IMG/VR virus record: IMGVR_UViG_2711768062_000003
Span: 1-40,741 of that record
From: a virus
Taxonomy: Duplodnaviria > Heunggongvirae > Uroviricota > Caudoviricetes
DNA length: 40,741 nt
Strand: one strand, 5' to 3'
Each line of letters begins with the position of its first letter. Position 1 is the stretch's first letter. The translations under genes were made by a program, and so were the position numbers. The notes below the pieces were generated by a model that did not search any database, was not told where the DNA came from, and was given only the letters and a program-made list of their open reading frames with translations. Shown here piece by piece: positions 1 through 40,741 of this stretch.

Positions 1-1194
1 ATGATCACCGACACAAAGCTCAGGAAGGCGCTCGGCAAGAAAAGAGATGATATCGAGATTATTTCTGATTCGCACGGGCTCAACGCCAGAATCAGCCAGG
101 CCGGAAAAATATCATTTTTCTATCGGTATCGCTGGGCCGGTAAAGCGGTAAAACTCAATGTTGGTGATTATCCTGCAATGAGTATCACCCAGGCAAGAGA
201 GCGTCGCCAACAATTCAGAAACTGGTTAACTGAGGGACTGGATCCGCGAGAGCAGGTGAAGCTGGATAAGCAGACCCGACAGGAAGCGATGTCCGTTGCC
301 GAAGCGTTCAATTACTGGATTGAAAGGCACTGTATCGCTAACGGGCTAGTTAAAGTCGATTACTATCGCCAGGTGTTTGAGAAACATATCGCCGAACCGA
401 TGAAGAATGTCAAAGTCGATAACACAGCGAAAATGCACTGGATCAACGTCTTCGATTCTATAGAAAGCAGGGTGATGGCTCATTACATGCTTTCGCTGTG
501 CAAACGGGCCTTTAGGTTCTGCGTTAACAGAAGTGTGATCGCCTCAAACCCACTCGAGGGATTACTGCCATCTGATGTCGGGCAAAAGCCTAAAAAGAGA
601 ACTCGCAGGATGGACGATGACGATCTGCGCAAAATCTATCAGTGGTTGAAAAGCCATATGTCGATAGAGTCCGTTTTCCTGGTGAAATTTATTATGCTTA
701 CCGGATGCCGTACGGCTGAGATTCGACTTAGTGAGAGATCATGGTTTCGATTGGATGATAATGAGTGGGTCGTGCCTGCGGGCAGTTATAAAACTCGGGT
801 ACATATTAGAAGGGGACTCTCAGACGCCGCCGTTAACCTGGTCAGAAATCACCTCAAGAAAATAAACACCAATCACCTGGTGACTTCACAACGTAAAATT
901 GATGGCGGGATCAAAGATTCGCCCGTTCATTCACCTGTGGCATCCAATTACGCCCGTTCTATTTGGAATGGAACAGGTATGGCAGAGTGGTCGCTTCATG
1001 ATATGAGGCGGACGATAGCCACAAATCTCTCTGAGTTAGGTTGCCCGCCGCACGTAATTGAAAAGCTGCTCGGGCATCAGATGGTGGGGGTTATGGCGCA
1101 TTACAACCTTCATGACTATATCGATGATCAGAAACACTGGCTCCGCGTTTGGCAGAGCCATCTTGAAGAGATCATCGGAGAGCCCTTCAGTTAA
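1..1194 (+). CDS. Tyrosine-type site-specific integrase (phage integrase family)
   Basis: 397-aa ORF starting at ATG at position 1; C-terminal catalytic region with conserved Arg/His/Tyr context ([11 protein letters not shown] ... [18 protein letters not shown]); convergent with an excisionase-like gene. Confidence 0.85.
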
Positions 1195-14624: not shown

Positions 14625-14761
14625 CATCAGAACTGATTGAGGTAATCCGCATGCGCTGGACACGCCTCCGCATTTATCGCCGCCCGGGTTCGGTGCTGGT
14701 GGACTACCGCATTCTTCGCAATTTTATTCGCATTAACCAGTTGGCAGGAGCTGCTGCATGA
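14621..14761 (+). CDS. Possible 46-aa translationally coupled ORF between rusA and Q
   Basis: ATG overlaps rusA stop and its TGA overlaps Q start (ATGA junctions at both ends); basic, no homology known to me. Confidence 0.25.
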
Positions 14762-15588
14762 ACCTCGAAAACACCGTGAAATACCACTTCGCCAAATCGA
14801 CGCTGATTAGCGACTCTCCGCGCGCTACGGCCTCCGACTCGCTGACCGGAACGGACATCATGGCAGCCATGGGCATGACCCAGGAACGCGCCGCCATGGG
14901 CTACAGTGCCTTTCTCGGAAAGATGGGCATCAGCAACAACGATCGGGAGAGAGCGATCGAGCTGCTGGCCCAGTATGCGCTGACAAAATGCGATAGCGTG
15001 GCTGCCCTGCGCAAACTGGACGCTGGGGTTAAACCGCTGGTGATGCGCCAGCTTGCTACCTTCGCTTTTGAGGACTATTCCCGCAGCGCCGCCAGCGTCA
15101 AGAGGTGCGAATGTTGCGCAGGGCAGGGGTTCATTGAGGCTGACGTTTTTAGTATGAAAACCAGCATCTCTGGCTGCGCAAAAGACATCATTCAAAAATC
15201 AAAAAAATGGGGGCTGAAGGTTATCCCTTCGCAGCATCAGAATCGGCGTGAGGTGAAAGAGGTGGCCCGGGTGCTGTGCTCGGCCTGCAAAGGGAAGACG
15301 GTCGTCAGCTGCGCATGTAATGACTGCCAGGGGCGCGGAAAAGCTGTCAGCAAGACGCTGACAGAAAAGCAGGGCGCGCCGGTGATGGCCGACTGCAAGC
15401 GCTGCGGCGGGCGCGGGTATGAGCGGATCCCCTCGACTGAGGCATATGCGGCTGTTTGCCTTATTACCGACGCCATTACTCTGGACACCTGGAAAAAGTC
15501 AGTGAAGCCGTTTTACGACCGGCTGATCACCAAATTCGACATGGAAGAAGCGTGGGCCGAATCGCAACTGCGAGCAATAACTCGATAA
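14758..15588 (+). CDS. Late-gene antiterminator (Q-like, Cys-rich Zn-finger type)
   Basis: 276-aa ORF located immediately upstream of the late promoter region and lysis cassette; multiple CxxC pairs (CECCAGQG, CSACKGK, CNDCQGRG, CKRCGGRG). Confidence 0.6.
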   Translation: MNLENTVKYHFAKSTLISDSPRATASDSLTGTDIMAAMGMTQERAAMGYSAFLGKMGISNNDRERAIELLAQYALTKCDSVAALRKLDAGVKPLVMRQLATFAFEDYSRSAASVKRCECCAGQGFIEADVFSMKTSISGCAKDIIQKSKKWGLKVIPSQHQNRREVKEVARVLCSACKGKTVVSCACNDCQGRGKAVSKTLTEKQGAPVMADCKRCGGRGYERIPSTEAYAAVCLITDAITLDTWKKSVKPFYDRLITKFDMEEAWAESQLRAITR

Positions 15589-15653: not shown

Positions 15654-15968
15654 CTCTCCAACGATGGGTTACTGCCTTCGTTTAAAGCCCTGCGGTTAAC
15701 CCCGCGGGGCTTTGCCGTTTCTGGAGGGTATGAAAATGTAGAGTAGAACGGACACACCGTAGCCGAAAGGCAATGCAGCAGTCATGATGCTGCCCCGAGT
15801 CGCCATTGAGCGAGCCTGTGTAGTGACGGGTCAGGGTTCATAGATTAAAAATAGCTCCGGTAAAGCAGCGCGAAAGCCAGACGCGCACCGGTGATAAGCG
15901 GCGATGATGCGACAGCAGCTCAAGGGCATGAGCGTGGCCACTCCGGGAAGTGGCAAAGAATTTATAGA

Positions 15969-15997
15969 GGCTCGCATACGCGGGCCTTTTCTTTTTC
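15969..15997 (+). terminator. Candidate rho-independent terminator in the Q-S intergenic region (tR-prime-like)
   Basis: GGCTCGC-atac-GCGGGCC hairpin followed by TTTTCTTTTTC. Confidence 0.45.
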
Positions 15998-17767: not shown

Positions 17768-17793
17768 TACAAACCGCCTACGGGCGGTTTTTT
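17768..17793 (+). terminator. Rho-independent terminator
   Basis: AAACCGCC-tac-GGGCGG followed by TTTTTT. Confidence 0.7.
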
Positions 17794-17884
17794 AGTGTCA
17801 ACGCTATGGACAAACTCATCTTTATGGCTACATCCCCCGGAGGGGATGCGTAAAAGGCTTAAGAAAAATGATTTTGAAAAATGC

Positions 17885-18145
17885 TTATTGTGCTCTGCCT
17901 AGTAGAGCAGCGACTCTCTCGTTTAATTTTTCTAGGTATCCATCTTTAGCGGGAATGTCGAATTCGATGGGGTCGGCCTTAGAAACCCCTTCTAAATAAA
18001 CATCTCCGAGGTGAGTTTCTTTCCCCACAACTCCGTTTAAAGCCGTTGATAATACAGCAATAGCAACACGAGAAGCGTGGCTGTGTAACTGTAACTCTTC
18101 AACCAAATCCTCAAGATGGGCAATTCTTTTTTCTACATCTGACAT
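17885..18145 (-). CDS. Hypothetical protein (AT-rich moron, antisense to late genes)
   Basis: 86-aa ORF; AAGGAA SD 7 nt upstream of ATG; AT-rich; between lysis cassette and terminase. Confidence 0.6.
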   Translation of the reverse strand: MSDVEKRIAHLEDLVEELQLHSHASRVAIAVLSTALNGVVGKETHLGDVYLEGVSKADPIEFDIPAKDGYLEKLNERVAALLGRAQ

Positions 18146-18281
18146 AGTCGTTCCTTTGCATCAAAGTTCTTAGGGTTGAAACATGACACTTGTATAGAAG
18201 CAAAATAATTTTTGCCGCTAATACTTCGTCATTTTCAATGGTTACTATCGCCTCGTTTATTGGAATATTCCAGAGAGTTTT

Positions 18282-18989
18282 ATGGCAAAACCGGACTGGG
18301 GAAGCCTCCAAAGACGGTTCCTCGCCGAGCATGCCAAAACAGGTATATCGCCGAAAGAATGGTGCGAAGCGCAGGGACTGAATTATACATCTGCGCGCAG
18401 GTACATCAAAAAGCCTGCTGCGCAAAAAACTGCGCAAAAGGATGTGCGCAAAACTGCGCAAAGCCAGATGCCGCATGTAGTAGTGGTTGAAGCCTCTACG
18501 CCAGTTGAGGGCGATACTGCGCAGGAAAACGCAGGCATCCTTAAACCACAGCATGAGCAGTTTGCGCAGAACATCGCGCGGGGCATGCCGCAGAAAGAGG
18601 CGGCGATATGCGCGGGCTATTCGCCTTCACGCGCTGATTCCCAGGCATCGATACTTTTCAAACGCCCGGATGTGCGCAGGCGCATCAGAGAGCTGCGTCA
18701 GGATGCCGCTCTGCTCGTATCATTCGACGCGAAAGACCTGGCTGAACTCTCCTACAAATCGGCGAAAGCCGCGCTGGACGCTGAGAAGTTTGGGCAGGTA
18801 GCCCCGAACATCAAAAACGCCGCGCAGCTCACCGGCATCGACATGAGCAACAAAACGGAAGTGAATGTCGATCTGGCTGGCCTGAGTTACGGAAAGGTCT
18901 GCATCGTCACGCCGTCGAACTGCCCGCCTGAAGCGTGGGCAGCGCACATGGATAAGCTGCGCGAGGGAAAGCAGACAGCCCAACAATAA
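18282..18989 (+). CDS. Terminase small subunit
   Basis: 235 aa; motif [23 protein letters not shown] ... [18 protein letters not shown] characteristic of small terminase HTH domain; directly upstream of the large subunit. Confidence 0.7.
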
Positions 18990-21721: not shown

Positions 21722-22316
21722 CGCCCGGCTGATAGATTACTCGCTGCTGATTGACGACTGGGCCGACCGGGTAGCCAAACGCATGTTCCTGCAGGTTGAG
21801 CAGGAGGAGTGGAACCAGTGGCGCTCTGTGTCGCAGGAAATCTCTGAGGGGCTGCGGGATGTTGTCGGCAATACGCCGGTGGGGTTCGTGGCTCAGGACA
21901 TCGTATCCCGCCAGGTGCAGCTGATTAAATCTCTTCCGCTGGAAGCTGCCGACCGCGTTCGTGACATCCAGGAGCGCGCAATGGAAGCCGTCATAAACGG
22001 TGAGCGCCCCGACGCGCTCTATCGGATGATTATGGAGTCCGGCGACGTGGCAGAGAGCCGCGCGAAGATGATCGCCCGCACCGAAATCGGCCGGGCCACG
22101 ACAGCGCTCACCCAGGCGCGCGCTGAGTCGATTGGCTCTGAGGGCTACTGGTGGCGCATCGAAGGGGCCGGAACGCGCGATTCACATCGCTGGATGAAAG
22201 ATAAGTTTGTGCGCTGGGATAACCCGCCGACGCTGGACGGTATGACCGGGCACGCCGGGTGCCTGCCGAACTGCAAATGCTGGCCGGAAGTGCAGGTGCC
22301 AAATCCCAGGAAATAA
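21558..22316 (+). CDS. Head morphogenesis protein (Mu F / SPP1 gp7 family-like)
   Basis: 252-aa ORF following portal; start assignment (21558 or 21564) gives a long overlap with the portal frame. Confidence 0.7.
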   Translation: MKMPKQNGRRLNLKPNLRRKSERQYQKSLQEIARQCGAIVTGSYDGSEASAEQVSARLIDYSLLIDDWADRVAKRMFLQVEQEEWNQWRSVSQEISEGLRDVVGNTPVGFVAQDIVSRQVQLIKSLPLEAADRVRDIQERAMEAVINGERPDALYRMIMESGDVAESRAKMIARTEIGRATTALTQARAESIGSEGYWWRIEGAGTRDSHRWMKDKFVRWDNPPTLDGMTGHAGCLPNCKCWPEVQVPNPRK

Positions 22317-22338
22317 AAAAGCCATCACAAGGATGGCT
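22313..22338 (-). terminator. Rho-independent terminator for the minus-strand moron
   Basis: On minus strand AGCCATC-cttgt-GATGGCT followed by TTTTTTATTT. Confidence 0.6.
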
Positions 22339-22353
22339 GGGAGGGAGGCTTTC

Positions 22354-22551
22354 TCAATCTACATAAACCCTGAATTGAGCTGAATTACCCTCTACGGCAT
22401 CAATGCGAGCGTTCACCCCGAGCGCTGCAAGTTGGTCTTTGATTTTGGTGTAACGCTCGCCCTCAACATAGTCATTGTTGAGGCCAGTGGTGCGTGACCA
22501 CTCATCTGCCATGCGATCCATCTTCGCTAACAATTCTGCTTTAGTGCTCAT
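22354..22551 (-). CDS. Hypothetical protein (moron antisense within head gene cluster)
   Basis: 65 aa from ATG with AAGGAG SD; own terminator; perfect TTGACA hexamer upstream on minus strand. Confidence 0.55.
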   Translation of the reverse strand: MSTKAELLAKMDRMADEWSRTTGLNNDYVEGERYTKIKDQLAALGVNARIDAVEGNSAQFRVYVD

Positions 22552-22669
22552 TTCAAAACTCCTTTTGGTGGTGGGAATCAATGTTCATGTTTTCACTATC
22601 GAATTTAGAGTGTCAAGGCCGAAAATTAGTGGTGAAGAGCTCGTGCTAAAGCATTAGATAAACCCCAGT

Positions 22670-22692
22670 GGCCGCTACTGCGCGGCCTTTTT
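22670..22692 (+). terminator. Rho-independent terminator-like hairpin on the late strand
   Basis: GGCCGC-tactgc-GCGGCC followed by TTTTT, just upstream of scaffold gene. Confidence 0.5.
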
Positions 22693-22718
22693 ACTGCCCG
22701 CAATTCAGCAGGTAACCC

Positions 22719-23972
22719 ATGAAATACTTCTTCATTACCCGCCTTGGCGAAACGCGCTACCAGCTGGCGGACGGCTCCCTGCTGTGCAAAGACGTCCCGA
22801 TCGCCCGCACCGGCACGCAAACCTATCTTCCCGAAGAAATCGGCCTTGAGCCTGGCGCAGATGGGCTGGTGGTCATCTATCGCACCGAGGACGAGGTTTT
22901 CTCTCCAGAGACTATGGCGAGCTTCGAGGGCATGGCGGTAACGCTGGATCACCCGGAAGACGGCGAAGGCAACATCGTTTTCGTTAACCCGGCGAACTTC
23001 GCGGAGCTGGCCCATGGCCATATCCAGAACGTCCGCCGCGGCACCGGCGATAAAACCGACCTGTTGATCGCTGATGTGCTGGTGAAGCGGCAGGAAGGCA
23101 TCGATGCGGTCAACGCTGGTAAAAACCAGGTCAGCTGTGGCTACGACGCCCAGTACGTGCAAATCGGCCCGGGCAAGGGCAAGCAAACAGAAATCACAGG
23201 AAACCATCTGGCCATCGTTGATAAGGGCCGGGCGGGCTCCCGCTGTGCAATCGGGGATTCGGCCCCATCAAAACCAAAGGAGAAGCCTGCAATGTCATGG
23301 CTGAAAAAACTGGCTCAGGCCATTAAGACGAAAGATGAGGACGCGCTGACGAAGCTCATCGATGAAGCGCCGGACATGCCATCTGACGGCATGGGTTCCA
23401 TCCCCGGCGTAACCATCAACATGAACGTGCCTTCACAGGCTACCGCGCTGCCAGCAGACCAGAAGACCACGGTCGATGAAGATACCGATCCGGAAAAGAA
23501 AACCGGTGATGAAGAGGCGCCCGCCTGGGCGCAGGCTCTGATTGCTCGACTCGATAAGCTGGAAGGCAAAACTGGCGATGCTGATCTGGACGACGAAACC
23601 AAAACCGGTGACGAAGACGCGAAAGAGGATGCGAAGGTAACCGGCGATGCGGCCTATAAGCGCAACATCATCGGCGACGCAGAGATCATCTGCCCGGGCT
23701 TCCAGCCTGCCGGCGACAAAGGCCTGAAGCGTCAGGTACTCAACCAGGCGCTGCGCACAGGCGACAGCCTGAAGGCGTTTGGCATTTCCGACTTCGCCAA
23801 AGCGCCGAAGGCCACTGTCGATGCGGTGTTTAAGGCTGCAGTCGAGATCAGTAAGGCAAAGAACCGCATCACCCCGCCTTCAGGCAAACCAACTGGCGAC
23901 CGCGCCCGCGGCCCAATGTCCCCGGCTGAGTTGAACAAAATCAACGCCGAATTCTGGAAACGTAACAAATAA
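22719..23972 (+). CDS. Putative prohead scaffolding / maturation protein
   Basis: 417-aa ORF between head morphogenesis and capsid genes; acidic repetitive centre (KTGDEE ... KTGDAD ... KTGDED). Confidence 0.55.
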   Translation: MKYFFITRLGETRYQLADGSLLCKDVPIARTGTQTYLPEEIGLEPGADGLVVIYRTEDEVFSPETMASFEGMAVTLDHPEDGEGNIVFVNPANFAELAHGHIQNVRRGTGDKTDLLIADVLVKRQEGIDAVNAGKNQVSCGYDAQYVQIGPGKGKQTEITGNHLAIVDKGRAGSRCAIGDSAPSKPKEKPAMSWLKKLAQAIKTKDEDALTKLIDEAPDMPSDGMGSIPGVTINMNVPSQATALPADQKTTVDEDTDPEKKTGDEEAPAWAQALIARLDKLEGKTGDADLDDETKTGDEDAKEDAKVTGDAAYKRNIIGDAEIICPGFQPAGDKGLKRQVLNQALRTGDSLKAFGISDFAKAPKATVDAVFKAAVEISKAKNRITPPSGKPTGDRARGPMSPAELNKINAEFWKRNK

Positions 23973-34150: not shown

Positions 34151-34503
34151 AAAAAATACTTTTTTTGGTTTCTTTAGCATTCGTCAGTTTTTCTTCTACA
34201 GCGGCAAACACCGCTTATATGAAGTGTGGTCCCTTTACTTTCTCAACCTCATCAAGCAACGACGGATATCCGAGGATAAACGGAGCAAAGCCTGATAGTC
34301 AGAAGGTGACATTCCTCAAAAAAGAGGGAGATTATGACAATATTAAAATGCAATGGATTGTCATGAATGAGAATTCTGGGCAGCGCTATGGTCTTGATTA
34401 TATAAAACGCAATGGGAGAGGGATACTCAATGCCGAGGCCATCAGAATGAACATGAATGAACCTCGAGTGTTTGGAACTTACGACTGCGTGAAGGCTAAG
34501 TGA
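34147..34503 (+). CDS. Small secreted protein (cleavable signal peptide, 2 Cys), AT-rich moron
   Basis: 118 aa; MKKILFLVSLAFVSFSSTA-ANT signal peptide; ATGA overlap with baseplate gene stop; AT-rich unlike flanks. Confidence 0.55.
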   Translation: MKKILFLVSLAFVSFSSTAANTAYMKCGPFTFSTSSSNDGYPRINGAKPDSQKVTFLKKEGDYDNIKMQWIVMNENSGQRYGLDYIKRNGRGILNAEAIRMNMNEPRVFGTYDCVKAK

Positions 34504-34508
34504 TTTAA

Positions 34509-34535
34509 TAAAGGCGCCGGAACTACCGGCGCTCA
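34509..34535 (-). terminator. Rho-independent terminator (minus strand; weaker on plus)
   Basis: GGCGCCGG-aacta-CCGGCGC hairpin; T-rich tail (TTTATTAAA) on minus strand. Confidence 0.55.
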
Positions 34536-34536
34536 G

Positions 34537-34887
34537 TTACTCGTCTTTAAAACTTATAATTTTGTACTGCTCCAGTACTTCTGAAAGCTCCTTTGATGTC
34601 AGATTTTGTATTTCGATCGTACCTTTTTCAGTGGTTACCGTTATTTTTTTTGATGATCTGGTCTGTAACCATTTTCTCGCTATCGATGCAATGGCGATAC
34701 AAGCTGGTGATGATGTGATAACGGTAATAGATATTTCGAGAATTGTGCCAATAGCGCCAGGAGAATCACCCGTTCTGACTCTTTTACTTACTACATAGTC
34801 ATTAGCGGGTATGTTATCCTGGATTACAGGAAGTAACTCTTTCCAAATAGCTGGAGTAAATTTTATGGTTGTTTCTGATTTTGGCAT
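34537..34887 (-). CDS. Hypothetical protein (AT-rich moron, antisense to tail genes)
   Basis: 116-aa ORF with its own terminator; weak SD; overlaps a possible 53-aa plus-strand ORF (34865..35026), so one of the two may be spurious. Confidence 0.4.
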   Translation of the reverse strand: MPKSETTIKFTPAIWKELLPVIQDNIPANDYVVSKRVRTGDSPGAIGTILEISITVITSSPACIAIASIARKWLQTRSSKKITVTTEKGTIEIQNLTSKELSEVLEQYKIISFKDE

Positions 34888-35066
34888 AAAGGTTTCAGGC
34901 CCCTATCGAGAGAAGCTAAAAATTGCCTACCGGCTTTTCCTTAGCAGCCTGTATCTTGCTACAAATCACGACGTTACCGTGGTTCTAAGCAAAACCTATA
35001 TTAAGAGCTGCAATGAAGATAAATAGCACGCATTAACTCACCCTCAAATCCTGACATTTGATCAGT

Positions 35067-35090
35067 AACCCGCCTCGGCGGGTTTTTTAT
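35067..35090 (+). terminator. Rho-independent terminator
   Basis: CCCGC-ctcg-GCGGG followed by TTTTTT, 16 nt upstream of the spike gene. Confidence 0.6.
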
Positions 35091-35105: not shown

Positions 35106-35759
35106 ATGCCAGTATCAGCCCGCGCGCAGGACGGCAACGAATCGCAGACTCTTGAGGCGCACCGCCACGCCATTTTCGGCAGCCTGCGCGTGGCTTTGCC
35201 GGGGATCATCCAGTCCTTTGACCCTGAAACAGTGACATGCACCGTGCAGCCAGCCATCTACGGTCAGCGGCTCAGCGACGATGGCGCTCTGGTTTCTGAG
35301 GAGATACCGATTTTGCCAGACGTTCCAGTGGTGTTCCCCCGCGGCGGTGGCTGCACGTTAACCTTCCCGGTAAAGGCCGGTGACGAGTGCCTCCTGGTCT
35401 TCTCCGATCGCTGCATCGACTTCTGGTGGCAGAGCGGCGGGGTGCAGGAACCGGTTGACCCGCGCCAGCATGACCTGAGTGATGCGTTTGCCATTGTGGG
35501 TCCGCAGTCGCAGGCGCAGAAAATCAGCAGCATCAGTACCAGTGCGGTTGAACTGCGCAGTGACGACGGTGGAACAAAACTGAGCCTTAACCCTTCATCC
35601 GGAGCGATAACGGGAACCGCGCCGGGAGGCTTCAACCTTAACGGTCTGAAAATTCTGCCTGACGGCCGCCTGCAGCTGGTGGATGGCTCCATGGTTGATA
35701 AGCATACGCATGGCGGCGTGGAAGTCGGCGGCAGCAATACGAAACCACTGGGAGGGTAA
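35106..35759 (+). CDS. Baseplate central spike protein (gpV / Mu gp45-like)
   Basis: ATG with GGAGA SD; 217 aa; size/position as baseplate spike; C-terminal Gly-rich tail. Confidence 0.55.
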   Translation: MPVSARAQDGNESQTLEAHRHAIFGSLRVALPGIIQSFDPETVTCTVQPAIYGQRLSDDGALVSEEIPILPDVPVVFPRGGGCTLTFPVKAGDECLLVFSDRCIDFWWQSGGVQEPVDPRQHDLSDAFAIVGPQSQAQKISSISTSAVELRSDDGGTKLSLNPSSGAITGTAPGGFNLNGLKILPDGRLQLVDGSMVDKHTHGGVEVGGSNTKPLGG

Positions 35760-38637: not shown

Positions 38638-39078
38638 ATGAGTAAATATCTTTACGATGCAAAAACTAATATGTTTTACCCATTTACTCTGGAAAGTCAG
38701 TATAAGGAGTCTGGGTTATGGCCTCATAATGGAGTTGAAGTTGATGAGGATATATTTATTAAGTACCTGTCCCCACCTCCAGGGAAAGTGAGAGTTGCGG
38801 GTGATGATGGCTATCCTGCATGGGATGACGTACCGCCGCTAACTCATGAAGAACAACAGTCAGAAGCGGAACGAAAAAAACAGGCACTCATAAATCGAGT
38901 TAATGAATATATTAACAGTAAGCAGTGGCCAGGAAAGGCTGCTATTGGTCGTCTGAAAGGTGAGGAACTGGCGCAATATAATTTGTGGCTGGATTATCTG
39001 GACGCACTGGAACTGGTTGATACCTCCAGTGCTCCAAATATTGAATGGCCTACGCCTCCGGCAGTTCAGGCCAGATGA
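38638..39078 (+). CDS. Tail fibre assembly protein (Tfa)
   Basis: 146 aa; C-terminal Tfa signature DTSSAPNIEWPTPP. Confidence 0.8.
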   Translation: MSKYLYDAKTNMFYPFTLESQYKESGLWPHNGVEVDEDIFIKYLSPPPGKVRVAGDDGYPAWDDVPPLTHEEQQSEAERKKQALINRVNEYINSKQWPGKAAIGRLKGEELAQYNLWLDYLDALELVDTSSAPNIEWPTPPAVQAR

Positions 39079-39652
39079 CATCCGGCGCGGTACTGGTATC
39101 TGTTACCGTCACCGCGTCAATGTAATCTAGCACACTGTTAAGTCGGGTGGTCTCTGCTTGCGTCAGCTTCCGCCCGGCCTGCAATTTCAGCTGAATCAGA
39201 CTGATGGAGGCCATAGCAGCATCAATCAGCGACTGGCGCTGTGCTTCTGCCACGTCTACTGCAGCGCTATGCTGTGCCTCAGTATCCGTCACCCATTTCT
39301 CACCATCCCATTTATCGTATGGCGTTAACGGGGCGATAGTGGTTGTATTTTCGGGATAGTCGCCTAGTGCTGTGATTTCTTTGGCATCTCCCGTTTCGGT
39401 GTTATAGACGATTTCACCGCGATGGTCTGACACATATTCCCATGATTTTAAATCCACAGAACGGCAAATTGTATAACCAGCCTTATATGTACCAGGACCG
39501 TCTAAACAGGAATATGCTGGAATACCGACACCCACTGCAAGATATTCAGTTGATTCAGAAATATATTCCCGAGTTTCACCATCATAGTTATAGACGGTAA
39601 TATTCCCCGCCTTCGTGGCAATAAGCTCGCTATTTAATACGGCATTATCCAT
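39050..39652 (-). CDS. Alternative tail fibre assembly protein (Tfa-prime, inverted orientation)
   Basis: 200 aa; Tfa signatures (DHRGEIVYNTETG ... DTSTAPDVIWPELP); convergent with and overlapping tfa. Confidence 0.8.
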   Translation of the reverse strand: MDNAVLNSELIATKAGNITVYNYDGETREYISESTEYLAVGVGIPAYSCLDGPGTYKAGYTICRSVDLKSWEYVSDHRGEIVYNTETGDAKEITALGDYPENTTTIAPLTPYDKWDGEKWVTDTEAQHSAAVDVAEAQRQSLIDAAMASISLIQLKLQAGRKLTQAETTRLNSVLDYIDAVTVTDTSTAPDVIWPELPEA

Positions 39653-40140
39653 TATGCAGCCCTCACGATAAAGTTAAATGCGATATTTCGTGGACGATTC
39701 TCTGATGCTGTTGGGATCTGTCTGGAGGCATCAAATTCAATCTGGCTATAAATCCCGTCGCTTGAGGTGATATTATTGATTTGCTGTTTGAGATACTTTC
39801 CCGCAAGATCAAAAACACCGGTACCGACAGAAAAAAGGCCATTAATATTTATCCCAAAATTACCTGTGATATTTCGAATTGCATCTCCCTGCGCGCTCAT
39901 TAACGCACGTCCGCTATCTACCCCGCGCCCATCATCCCAGCCTCGTAAAAACTCACCACGTAAATCTGGCAATTTATTTGTCGGGTAAGCCTTTGCCAGT
40001 TTCGGGTATTCCTCAGCAGAAAAAGGCGCACCGTTGCACTTAAGCCATCCCGTTGGTGGCGTTTCTGAAGGCCACGGAACAGGCACGCCAACAGGTAATG
40101 CAGAGCCTTCTCCCAAACCAACCTTTTTTATAACCATCAA
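39652..40140 (-). CDS. Alternative tail fibre variable C-terminal segment (lacks its own N-terminus; expressed only after inversion)
   Basis: 162-aa ORF, frame open upstream to the recombination site next to the invertase gene; stop overlaps Tfa-prime start. Confidence 0.6.
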   Translation of the reverse strand: MMVIKKVGLGEGSALPVGVPVPWPSETPPTGWLKCNGAPFSAEEYPKLAKAYPTNKLPDLRGEFLRGWDDGRGVDSGRALMSAQGDAIRNITGNFGININGLFSVGTGVFDLAGKYLKQQINNITSSDGIYSQIEFDASRQIPTASENRPRNIAFNFIVRAA

Positions 40141-40161
40141 AAATCTGGTGATGCTTCGCCG

Positions 40162-40187
40162 TTTCTCCTGTTTTCATAACAGGAGAA
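40162..40187. other. Candidate invertase recombination site (hix/gix-like 26-bp imperfect palindrome)
   Basis: TTTCTCCTGTTTTCATAACAGGAGAA: 12-bp half-sites TTCTCCTGTT(T/A)T in inverted orientation, 6 nt upstream of invertase ATG. Confidence 0.45.
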
Positions 40188-40192
40188 ATCCC

Positions 40193-40741
40193 ATGATTTA
40201 CGGTTATGCCCGAGTATCAACAAACCACCAGGACACTGAATTGCAACTAACGGCGCTCAAGTCAGCGGGTTGTGAGAAAATTTTTGAAGAGCATGCCAGC
40301 GGGAGGAAATCGAATCGGCCGGTTCTAAAACGGCTGATCACCACTATGCAGCCGGGGGATGAACTGGTGGTCTGGAAGCTGGACAGGATAGGCCGCAACG
40401 TTCTGCATGCGCTGTTGATGTTCCAGCAGTTACAGGAAAAGGATATCAACTTCCGCAGTATTACCGATGGCGTGGATCTCAAAACAGCCAGCGGCCGCTA
40501 TAACTTTCGTAACATCCTTTCCGCAGCACAATATGAATCTGATCTTAATAGCGAACGTACCTTAGCAGGGCTGGCCGTAGCCAGGGCAAAAGGGCGAGTT
40601 GGTGGTCGCAGGCCTAAGTTCACGGATGAGCAATGGCGGGAAATGGGGGAGCGGATGGCAACCGGTGAATCACGACAAAGCGTATCAAAAACGTATGGAG
40701 TAGGGCTCTCAACTCTGTATAAAAAGTTTCCAGCTAGCTGA
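40193..40741 (+). CDS. Serine DNA invertase (Gin/Pin/Hin/Cin family)
   Basis: 182 aa; strong collinear match to Gin from memory (MIYGYARVSTNHQD ... VVWKLDRIGRN ... INFRSITDGVDL ... RTLAGLAVARAKGRVGGRRPKF ... LSTLYKKFPA). Confidence 0.9.
   Translation: MIYGYARVSTNHQDTELQLTALKSAGCEKIFEEHASGRKSNRPVLKRLITTMQPGDELVVWKLDRIGRNVLHALLMFQQLQEKDINFRSITDGVDLKTASGRYNFRNILSAAQYESDLNSERTLAGLAVARAKGRVGGRRPKFTDEQWREMGERMATGESRQSVSKTYGVGLSTLYKKFPAS

Follow-up and report, generated by a model that had tools for sequence, protein, structure and literature searches.

A probable antisense moron beside an ancestral terminator-like hairpin in the head operon of a lambdoid Escherichia coli prophage

The window analysed here is a stretch of 40,741 nucleotides (nt), positions 1-40,741 of the IMG/VR record IMGVR_UViG_2711768062_000003, and the region studied (22313-22692) is a junction between two head genes at which a small gene encoding a 65-residue protein lies antisense to the late operon. 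The window is 100% identical to a prophage in the chromosome of E. coli Res13-Sevr-PER07-33, and E. coli NCTC11023 carries the region at 99.9% identity. This prophage is lambdoid: its early part comprises, in order, integrase, RecET, CI/Cro-like regulators, replication O/P, nin-like genes, a Q-type antitermination protein and holin/lysozyme/Rz1, and its late part TerS, TerL, portal, MuF, the DNA that carries the 65-residue gene, DUF2213, cement protein, major capsid protein and contractile tail. The junction is bounded on the left by the TAA stop codon of the MuF-like gene (22314-22316) and on the right by the DUF2213 gene (Table 1). The original prediction from which we started, made from the letters of the window alone, had called the latter a scaffold gene, a reasonable label since PF09979, which the gene matches, is the family of Pa193 gp24, its type member, described as a putative scaffolding protein (PMC11456595).

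The gap between the MuF and DUF2213 genes measures 402 nt in the window versus 51 nt in the closest deposited phages, the Klebsiella phages ST405-OXA48phi1.2, ST11-VIM1phi8.3 and Mulock. Both flanks align, 842 nt of the query corresponding to 491 nt in these relatives, and the junction of E. coli ST361 also has a gap of 51 nt. The edges of the insertion are clean in the alignment: the MuF stop codon immediately precedes it and a plus-strand hairpin immediately follows it. The inserted DNA, hereafter the cassette, differs in composition from its surroundings, with a GC content of 0.45-0.495 (22300-22700) versus 0.585-0.655 in the flanking head genes. This comparison of related phages, which had been proposed as a check, confirmed that a minus-strand gene interrupts the head operon: the cassette is a 351-nt insertion relative to empty 51-nt junctions.

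The minus-strand open reading frame (ORF) of the cassette is annotated by RefSeq in the Res13-Sevr-PER07-33 chromosome as the hypothetical protein WP_053271619.1. The exact protein is found on 454 contigs, and there are only six other clusters at 90% identity among 5.8 billion proteins. Close homologs are all exactly 65 amino acids (aa) long, without indels, across six lineages, and every divergent homolog examined (71-92% identity) occupies the same MuF/DUF2213 junction in the same antisense orientation. Pairwise ratios of nonsynonymous to synonymous substitution rates (dN/dS) are 0.05-0.20, with dS of about 1-4 between lineages, and the variable columns of the ORF alignment are distributed 27/12/50 over the three codon positions; taken together, these two observations therefore indicate strong purifying selection on the minus-strand frame. 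As judged from this pattern of substitution, the ORF is a real protein-coding gene, and the 65-aa gene of the original prediction stands. The opposite view, that it is a chance antisense frame in a non-coding spacer and that the cassette yields no protein, could draw on the shortness of the ORF, on its lack of a database family and on the fact that a scanner called no promoter. It is, however, effectively refuted by the selection analysis, in which synonymous sites are saturated and third-position variation dominates, and it is at odds with the constancy of length and termini in all lineages, with the conserved Shine-Dalgarno sequence (SD), with the existence of distant homologs (down to 24-35% identity) in unrelated mobile elements and with the confident fold that the family alignment yields; we give it virtually no credence. 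Nor is the product a virion or assembly component: the gene is absent from most relatives, including the plaque-forming Klebsiella phage Mulock, it runs antisense to the late operon, and its distant homologs lie outside head modules.

A pattern scan over 2 kb returned 4 terminator-like sites versus 2.2 expected and, under a strict rule, no promoter; such a scan is weak on its own, whereas the comparative evidence is strong. Indeed, in the cassette alignment the non-coding DNA is mostly diverged, and CTTGACA, TGAAAACAT, the SD AAAGGAGTT and the terminator stem stand out. The AAGGAG and the perfect TTGACA noted in the original prediction were both found (22564..22559 and 22616..22611, respectively), the former conserved as AAAGGAGTT and the latter invariant in all lineages. 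The 15-nt spacer between CTTGACA and TGAAAACAT varies in sequence among lineages, and TGAAAACAT, taken as a -10 element, contains AAACAT, which keeps the A at position 2 and the T at position 6. Besides TTGACA and TG, the promoter region within 22552-22669 holds the TTCACYACT box (the TTCACCACT box), located about 10 nt upstream of the -35. This conservation argues for a TTGACA/TG-extended -10 promoter whose activity we infer. Note that TTCAC (in TTCACYACT) and GTGAA (in TGAAAACAT) form an inverted repeat symmetric about the -35 (22587-22636, minus strand), which may bind a regulator or may consist of two 5-mers that match by coincidence. The box and the AACAT motif were also considered as a tie to the prophage repressor and rejected: no second copy of the box is present in the prophage, and the AACAT..ATGTT palindromes that make up the CI/Cro operators differ in form from both the box and the motif.

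The gene is also predicted to have its own terminator, as had been claimed: on the minus strand, a 7-bp stem (22338-22332/22326-22320) is followed by T6 (22319-22314), with a folding energy of -9.6 kcal/mol (z = -3.4 versus shuffled sequence). The core stem GCCATC/GATGGC and the T-run are retained among lineages, and the outer pair has changed from A-U to G-C, a compensatory change, in one related locus (L004). Promoter and terminator would together delimit a minus-strand mRNA about 265 nt long that starts near 22580 and ends at about 22314. In the plus-strand direction, GGGAGGG and not a U-run follows the same hairpin, which should therefore not stop late transcription.

Table 1. Features of the MuF/DUF2213 junction and of the late-operon control region, in window coordinates
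Feature	Position	Strand	Basis or remark
Inserted cassette, 351 nt	22319..22669		alignment with relatives, junction catalogue, composition
65-aa ORF, ATG start	22551..22354	-	dN/dS, absence of indels, family, AlphaFold (AF2) model
Shine-Dalgarno AAGGAG	22559..22564	-	7 nt before ATG; conserved as AAAGGAGTT
Extended -10 TGAAAACAT (TG-n-AAACAT)	22587..22595	-	invariant in six lineages; 18 nt from -35
-35 hexamer TTGACA, perfect consensus	22611..22616	-	invariant in all six lineages
Conserved box TTCACYACT	22628..22636	-	at about -52 from the inferred start site
Cassette intrinsic terminator (predicted)	22314..22338	-	stem AGCCATC/GATGGCT, 5-nt loop, T6 over MuF stop codon
Ancestral intra-operon terminator-like hairpin, GGCCGC-N6-GCGGCC + T5	22670..22692	+	covariation; present in cassette-free relatives
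DUF2213 leader and ribosome-binding region (..TGCCCGCAATTCAGCAGGTAACCC-ATG)	22693..22718	+	nearly invariant
MuF-like head morphogenesis gene	21783..22316	+	PF04233, E = 5e-13; RefSeq start 21783
DUF2213 / Pa193 gp24-family gene (putative scaffolding protein)	22719..23972	+	PF09979, E = 2e-42
Q-type late antiterminator gene	14758..15588	+	PF03589, E = 1.2e-43; RefSeq "antitermination protein"
tR'-like terminator, 10-bp stem + T-run	15966..15989	+	between Q and holin gene

The original prediction had in addition associated with the moron a hairpin with a T-run on the late strand. This hairpin is real and does lie just before the scaffold gene, but it does not belong to the moron: its presence in cassette-free relatives with the 51-nt junction rules out that it is part of the cassette. 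It consists of 6 G-C pairs and a 6-nt loop (22670-22687) followed by T5, with a folding energy of -14.4 kcal/mol (z = -3.3 versus shuffled sequence), and thus displays the GC-rich stem, short loop and immediate T-run of an intrinsic terminator. Among 22 distinct versions of the hairpin, 93% of cells are paired versus 32-64% in slid controls, double changes are seen at 3/6 of the pairs, and the covariation score was reached by only 1/500 shuffles. Together with its presence in cassette-free relatives, these patterns indicate that the hairpin is an ancestral element of the junction maintained by compensatory changes. Some phages have different stems (AGGCCTGC/GCAGGCCT, AAGCCCGC/GCGGGCTT) yet keep the T-run, and T4-T7 directly follows the stem in essentially all 36 distinct versions; this retention of the T-run even with replaced stems therefore favours an intrinsic terminator over a mere stabilising stem.

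In all junction types the hairpin and its T-run immediately precede a nearly invariant leader of the DUF2213 gene. The 26-27 nt of this leader are shared without change by Klebsiella phages, despite an identity of only 53% between the DUF2213 proteins (53-56% for portal and DUF2213). An IMG/VR scan for the leader yielded 53 loci; since an exact match to the leader was what selected these loci, its invariance among them is a circular result, but the leader is equally conserved in L001-L016, a set of loci retrieved independently, even with 53%-identical DUF2213. The leader may act as a signal for translation, as a linker in recombination, or as both.

How the late polymerase would deal with such a hairpin depends on the control of the operon. 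In the window the Q gene lies upstream of the lysis and virion genes and is followed by a promoter-proximal terminator ahead of the holin gene, an arrangement that matches the classic pR'-tR' layout, and the cassette-free Klebsiella relative carries a Q-type gene in the same position (DUF1133 + Phage_antitermQ, 40 bits versus a 26-bit cut-off). Q-modified polymerase ignores intrinsic terminators. Late read-through of the plus-strand hairpin by antitermination, as originally proposed, is consistent with this setting; it is a reasonable proposal and would be normal for such operons. Internal terminators have been described in lambdoid late operons before; what they do is unsettled, the suggestions being partial attenuation or a block on transcription begun without antitermination (PMC8022706).

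Alternatively, the hairpin might not be primarily a terminator and might act, together with the leader, as an mRNA-stabilising or processing element, as a translational element or as a recombination linker between head modules. It does seem counter-productive to place a true terminator before the head proteins needed in greatest abundance, the junction coincides with a mosaic breakpoint (see below), and the strict identity of the 27-nt leader in phages with such divergent DUF2213 proteins also speaks for a role of this kind. By contrast, the T-run retained after the stem is the signature of an intrinsic terminator, the Q-type antiterminators of the window prophage and of the cassette-free relative would neutralise it, and such terminators are known in P22/L-type late operons (PMC8022706). 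We therefore hold this alternative to be rather doubtful, bearing in mind that the roles are compatible with each other and not mutually exclusive.

In 36 of the 53 IMG/VR junctions, the stretch from the MuF stop codon to the leader contains nothing but the hairpin; the other 17 carry cargo. The cargo is of at least 7 kinds and is always located between the MuF stop codon and the hairpin. It includes plus-strand ORFs of about 55, 62, 91-93, 139 and 214 aa (at loci that include L010 3318-3829, L025, L051, L056, L037, L054, L074 and L023), none of which could be assigned to a family with confidence, the 214-aa protein giving only weak helix-turn-helix matches. Another class is a segment of about 240 nt without an ORF. 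It is found at L011 (3318-3578), L024 and L047 as an insert of about 240-260 nt lacking any ORF of 45 aa or more, is partly conserved among these three phages (e.g. ATGTTAAATAGCCCGTTATT), has no Rfam match and may represent either cargo without a coding function or a cassette that has decayed. Among the kinds of cargo, minus-strand orientation and a terminator of its own are each peculiar to the 65-aa cassette.

The identity of the 65-aa protein co-varies with that of DUF2213 (71 versus 74%, 83 versus 82%, 92 versus 92%, 75 versus 81%), and portal and MuF can be 96-97% identical while the cassette is only 75-83% identical. At L008, L010 and L013/L014, portal and MuF are 96-97% identical and DUF2213 is 81-82% identical, the values for L010, which carries a different cargo, being 96% and 82%. 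This break in identity between portal/MuF and DUF2213 therefore identifies the junction as a mosaic recombination boundary at which cargo has been gained, lost or replaced several times. On these sequence comparisons, the junction is both a cargo hotspot and a mosaic boundary. As regards horizontal spread, the close 65-aa family is found only at this junction, where it co-diverges with DUF2213, its distant relatives occur in unrelated mobile elements, and cargo turnover at the junction is evident. The invariable position of the cargo upstream of the hairpin may plausibly be explained because the scaffold and capsid genes are then shielded from cargo-derived or spurious transcription in the lysogen and the leader is left intact.

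The 65-aa protein (7.3 kDa, pI 5.0) is hydrophilic and has no transmembrane segment, Cys, signal peptide or lipobox. A type I toxin was considered and ruled out by this hydrophilic character and the lack of a transmembrane segment. The homology search called for by the original prediction revealed a rare, unnamed family with no characterised match: an exhaustive profile search of 1.84 billion representatives retrieved only 12 proteins at E <= 1e-3, a profile search that returned names gave 18 proteins, all labelled "hypothetical", a tblastn search of 50,697 deposited phage genomes gave no match, and no paper mentions the accession WP_053271619. By these searches the family would be new. The wider family shares the core motif A-x2-W-x5-L-S-N-D-Y-S-E-G-x-R-Y, and some longer members (P0016, P0017 and P0011) have extensions without a recognisable domain. 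Distant members are stand-alone genes, with no conserved partner gene, in accessory regions of other mobile elements: one is close to an nSTAND/Mrr gene in a P2-like prophage region of Marinomonas, one lies on a phage-like contig directly after a Gp49/HTH_37 (HigB/HigA-type) pair, and one belongs to a conjugative element, with the coupling protein on one side and a Phd antitoxin plus type I restriction-modification genes on the other; a further one is in a Methylobacter chromosome. Among 185,579 species-representative genomes, this distant branch is represented only by the Marinomonas and Methylobacter loci.

A first structure prediction based on 7 close sequences was poor (predicted local distance difference test, pLDDT, 66) and was replaced by an AF2 model based on 18 sequences (pLDDT 91, predicted template modelling score 0.74). 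The model shows an alpha-alpha-beta-beta arrangement: helix 3-20, helix 28-43 and a beta-hairpin (48-53/56-64), with the most conserved polar residues at the inter-helix loop and at the start of helix 2. We tentatively propose that the product is a soluble, mildly acidic alpha-alpha-beta-hairpin protein that might bind a host or phage partner via the invariant polar loop L-x-N-D-Y-x-E-G-x-R-Y and thereby bring an accessory benefit to the lysogen or prophage, for instance exclusion, anti-defence or modulation of the host, a possibility that falls well short of a probability.

A moron is extra DNA of different GC content, with its own promoter and terminator, that is expressed from the repressed prophage (PMC3594210). 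As far as sequence can tell, the cassette has the attributes of a moron: an extra 351 nt of deviating, lower-GC composition, conserved elements of a putative promoter, a conserved SD, a predicted terminator of its own and an ORF under selection. This part of the original prediction is thus upheld. Absence of the ORF from viable relatives had been put forward as a refutation; such absence is indeed seen, as in Mulock, but it is part of the definition of a moron and not a counter-argument. ORFan morons are common. We conclude that the architecture, a real, independently signalled antisense moron beside an ancestral terminator, is probably correct.

A close parallel to this architecture among morons of the HK97/HK022 type is gene 15 of HK97 (PMC3594210), which is also extra DNA in otherwise collinear relatives, lies inside a virion-structural operon, deviates in GC content, has its own promoter and terminator, as predicted for the cassette, and is dispensable for virion production. 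Unlike gene 15, located within the tail operon, the cassette belongs to the head module, where the MuF and scaffold genes flank it, and runs against the late operon, and its soluble product has no sequence relation to gp15. Another parallel is lambda bor, which is expressed from the prophage in the direction opposite to the late operon and encodes an outer-membrane lipoprotein conferring serum resistance, beyond the lysis genes. It too is a small accessory gene, antisense in the late region, with its own promoter allowing expression in the lysogen, whereas the cassette protein has no signal peptide or lipobox and its gene lies between head-assembly genes. The hotspot is reminiscent of the P2/P4 variable loci, the accessory-gene hotspots of temperate phages and satellites, where one fixed intergenic site likewise holds unrelated, exchangeable cargo among relatives; here, by contrast, the site is within the head-assembly block, the cargo is very small (about 55-214 aa) and none of it matches a known defence family. 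As for the plus-strand hairpin, it resembles the rho-independent intra-operon terminators of phages L and P22 (PMC8022706), which Q-modified polymerase reads through, in being a GC-rich hairpin with a T-run between virion genes of a Q-dependent operon, but differs in its conservation with compensatory changes across many phages and in coinciding with a cargo hotspot and mosaic boundary.

These elements suggest how the junction might work. In the lysogen, with the late operon silent, host sigma-70 polymerase would make the minus-strand mRNA, and the cassette terminator would prevent this transcript from extending, in antisense, into the genes for MuF, portal and terminase. Upon induction, Q-modified polymerase starting at pR' would pass the cassette, whose hairpin offers it no U-run, and then the ancestral terminator, and would proceed into the scaffold and capsid genes; the converging late transcription would probably silence the moron. 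The ancestral hairpin would keep the scaffold and capsid genes closed to polymerase not modified by Q, which in other phages includes polymerase engaged on plus-strand cargo transcripts.

The gene could instead serve the lytic cycle, as an early anti-defence or takeover factor produced from its own promoter immediately after infection or induction, before Q-driven late transcription overruns it. A sigma-70 promoter without a recognisable CI operator would fire on an incoming genome too, and the mobile-element neighbours of distant relatives include restriction-modification, toxin-antitoxin and nSTAND genes. Anti-defence factors are typically small, acidic and soluble. However, the family has no match in PADLOC, which returned 0 families for all 17 members and hence no defence or toxin-antitoxin assignment, or elsewhere, and a gene that lies deep within the late region, faces the other way and is insulated by terminators fits the classic architecture of a prophage-expressed moron (PMC3594210). 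Nothing separates lytic from lysogenic expression and both could hold; as the principal explanation, a lytic role seems unlikely to us. Still less likely, in our view, is that the antisense RNA is the main product, pairing with late mRNA (e.g. with RNase III cleavage or uncoupling of message stability) or acting through promoter interference. Over about 265 nt, the minus-strand transcript and the late mRNA would be fully complementary, and the promoters converge. This explanation nevertheless does not account for the strong purifying selection on the amino-acid sequence or for the conserved SD; the cassette terminator would end the transcript exactly at the MuF stop codon, which therefore leaves no overlap with any late coding sequence; most relatives lack the cassette; and no Rfam family reached threshold over the region, the only candidate, asX2, having been rejected at 20 bits versus a gathering score of 70.

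Several points weigh against the picture of an independently expressed, beneficial moron next to a terminator. The -10 element matches the consensus at only 3/6 positions, which is why the promoter was not called by the consensus scanner, and the spacer is 18 nt long. The TTCACYACT box could mean that the promoter is regulated rather than constitutive, and both termination and read-through at the plus-strand hairpin are steps that we infer from sequence. The 65-aa protein has no match in Pfam, NCBIfam or PADLOC and only weak, non-significant ones in PHROGs (E = 0.024 and 0.16); a sequence profile search of the PDB gave nothing meaningful (best E = 1.3), and a Foldseek search of the AF2 model against the PDB and BFVD gave nothing below E = 0.1, so that its function is unconstrained. 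Finally, the cassette is rare: it occurs in 5/5426 complete E. coli genomes, and the close family of the gene in 0/185,579 species-representative genomes. Any benefit is therefore not broadly selected.

Other antisense genes were seen in the late region of the window and of a relative. A second antisense cassette (34514-35084) has a layout like that of the 65-aa cassette: after a late gene ending at 34503 come a minus-strand terminator (34532..34514) and a minus-strand ORF (34887..34537) with an EACC1 domain (PF19953, E = 1e-6), and a plus-strand terminator (35067-35084) precedes the next late gene, encoding the spike, which begins at 35106. A third minus-strand ORF (18145..17885, 86 aa, without a Pfam match) lies between the lysis genes and TerS, in a region (17771-18409) that also holds a plus-strand terminator (17771-17790) and, inside the 5' end of TerS, a sigma-70-like promoter matching at 10/12 positions (18409..18382). 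In the related prophage of E. coli GZ2408P (L010), an antisense hypothetical gene of 109 aa (768-1097, minus strand) lies between TerL and portal, a site that is uninterrupted in the window. Towards the window's end (about 38700-40741; L017 1-2022), a "recombinase family protein" at the edge adjoins oppositely oriented tail-fibre assembly genes, an annotation that suggests a Gin/Cin-type invertible host-range segment.

Combining protein and junction, one may imagine that the 65-aa protein founds a new class of accessory factors (e.g. an inhibitor of host defence or a factor excluding competitors) acting through the L-S-N-D-Y-S-E-G-x-R-Y loop on a mini-fold not seen before, and that hairpin and leader form a docking and insulation site allowing swaps of small cargo that spare capsid expression; we regard this joint proposal as speculative and improbable as a whole. 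The findings overturn no current ideas; the moron type is already known and the cassette is a fairly ordinary example of it. They nonetheless provide a well-documented case of a temperate phage accessory gene inside an essential operon, reversed, with its own signals and upstream of a pre-existing predicted terminator that would shield the scaffold and capsid genes, and the rare unnamed family to which it belongs, with its confident predicted fold, is a candidate for functional screening. They also point to a cargo hotspot and mosaic boundary within the head module of prophages that form a widespread enterobacterial group, where the conserved putative intra-operon terminator could be used to probe the role of such elements in Q-regulated late operons, which has been called unknown (PMC8022706).

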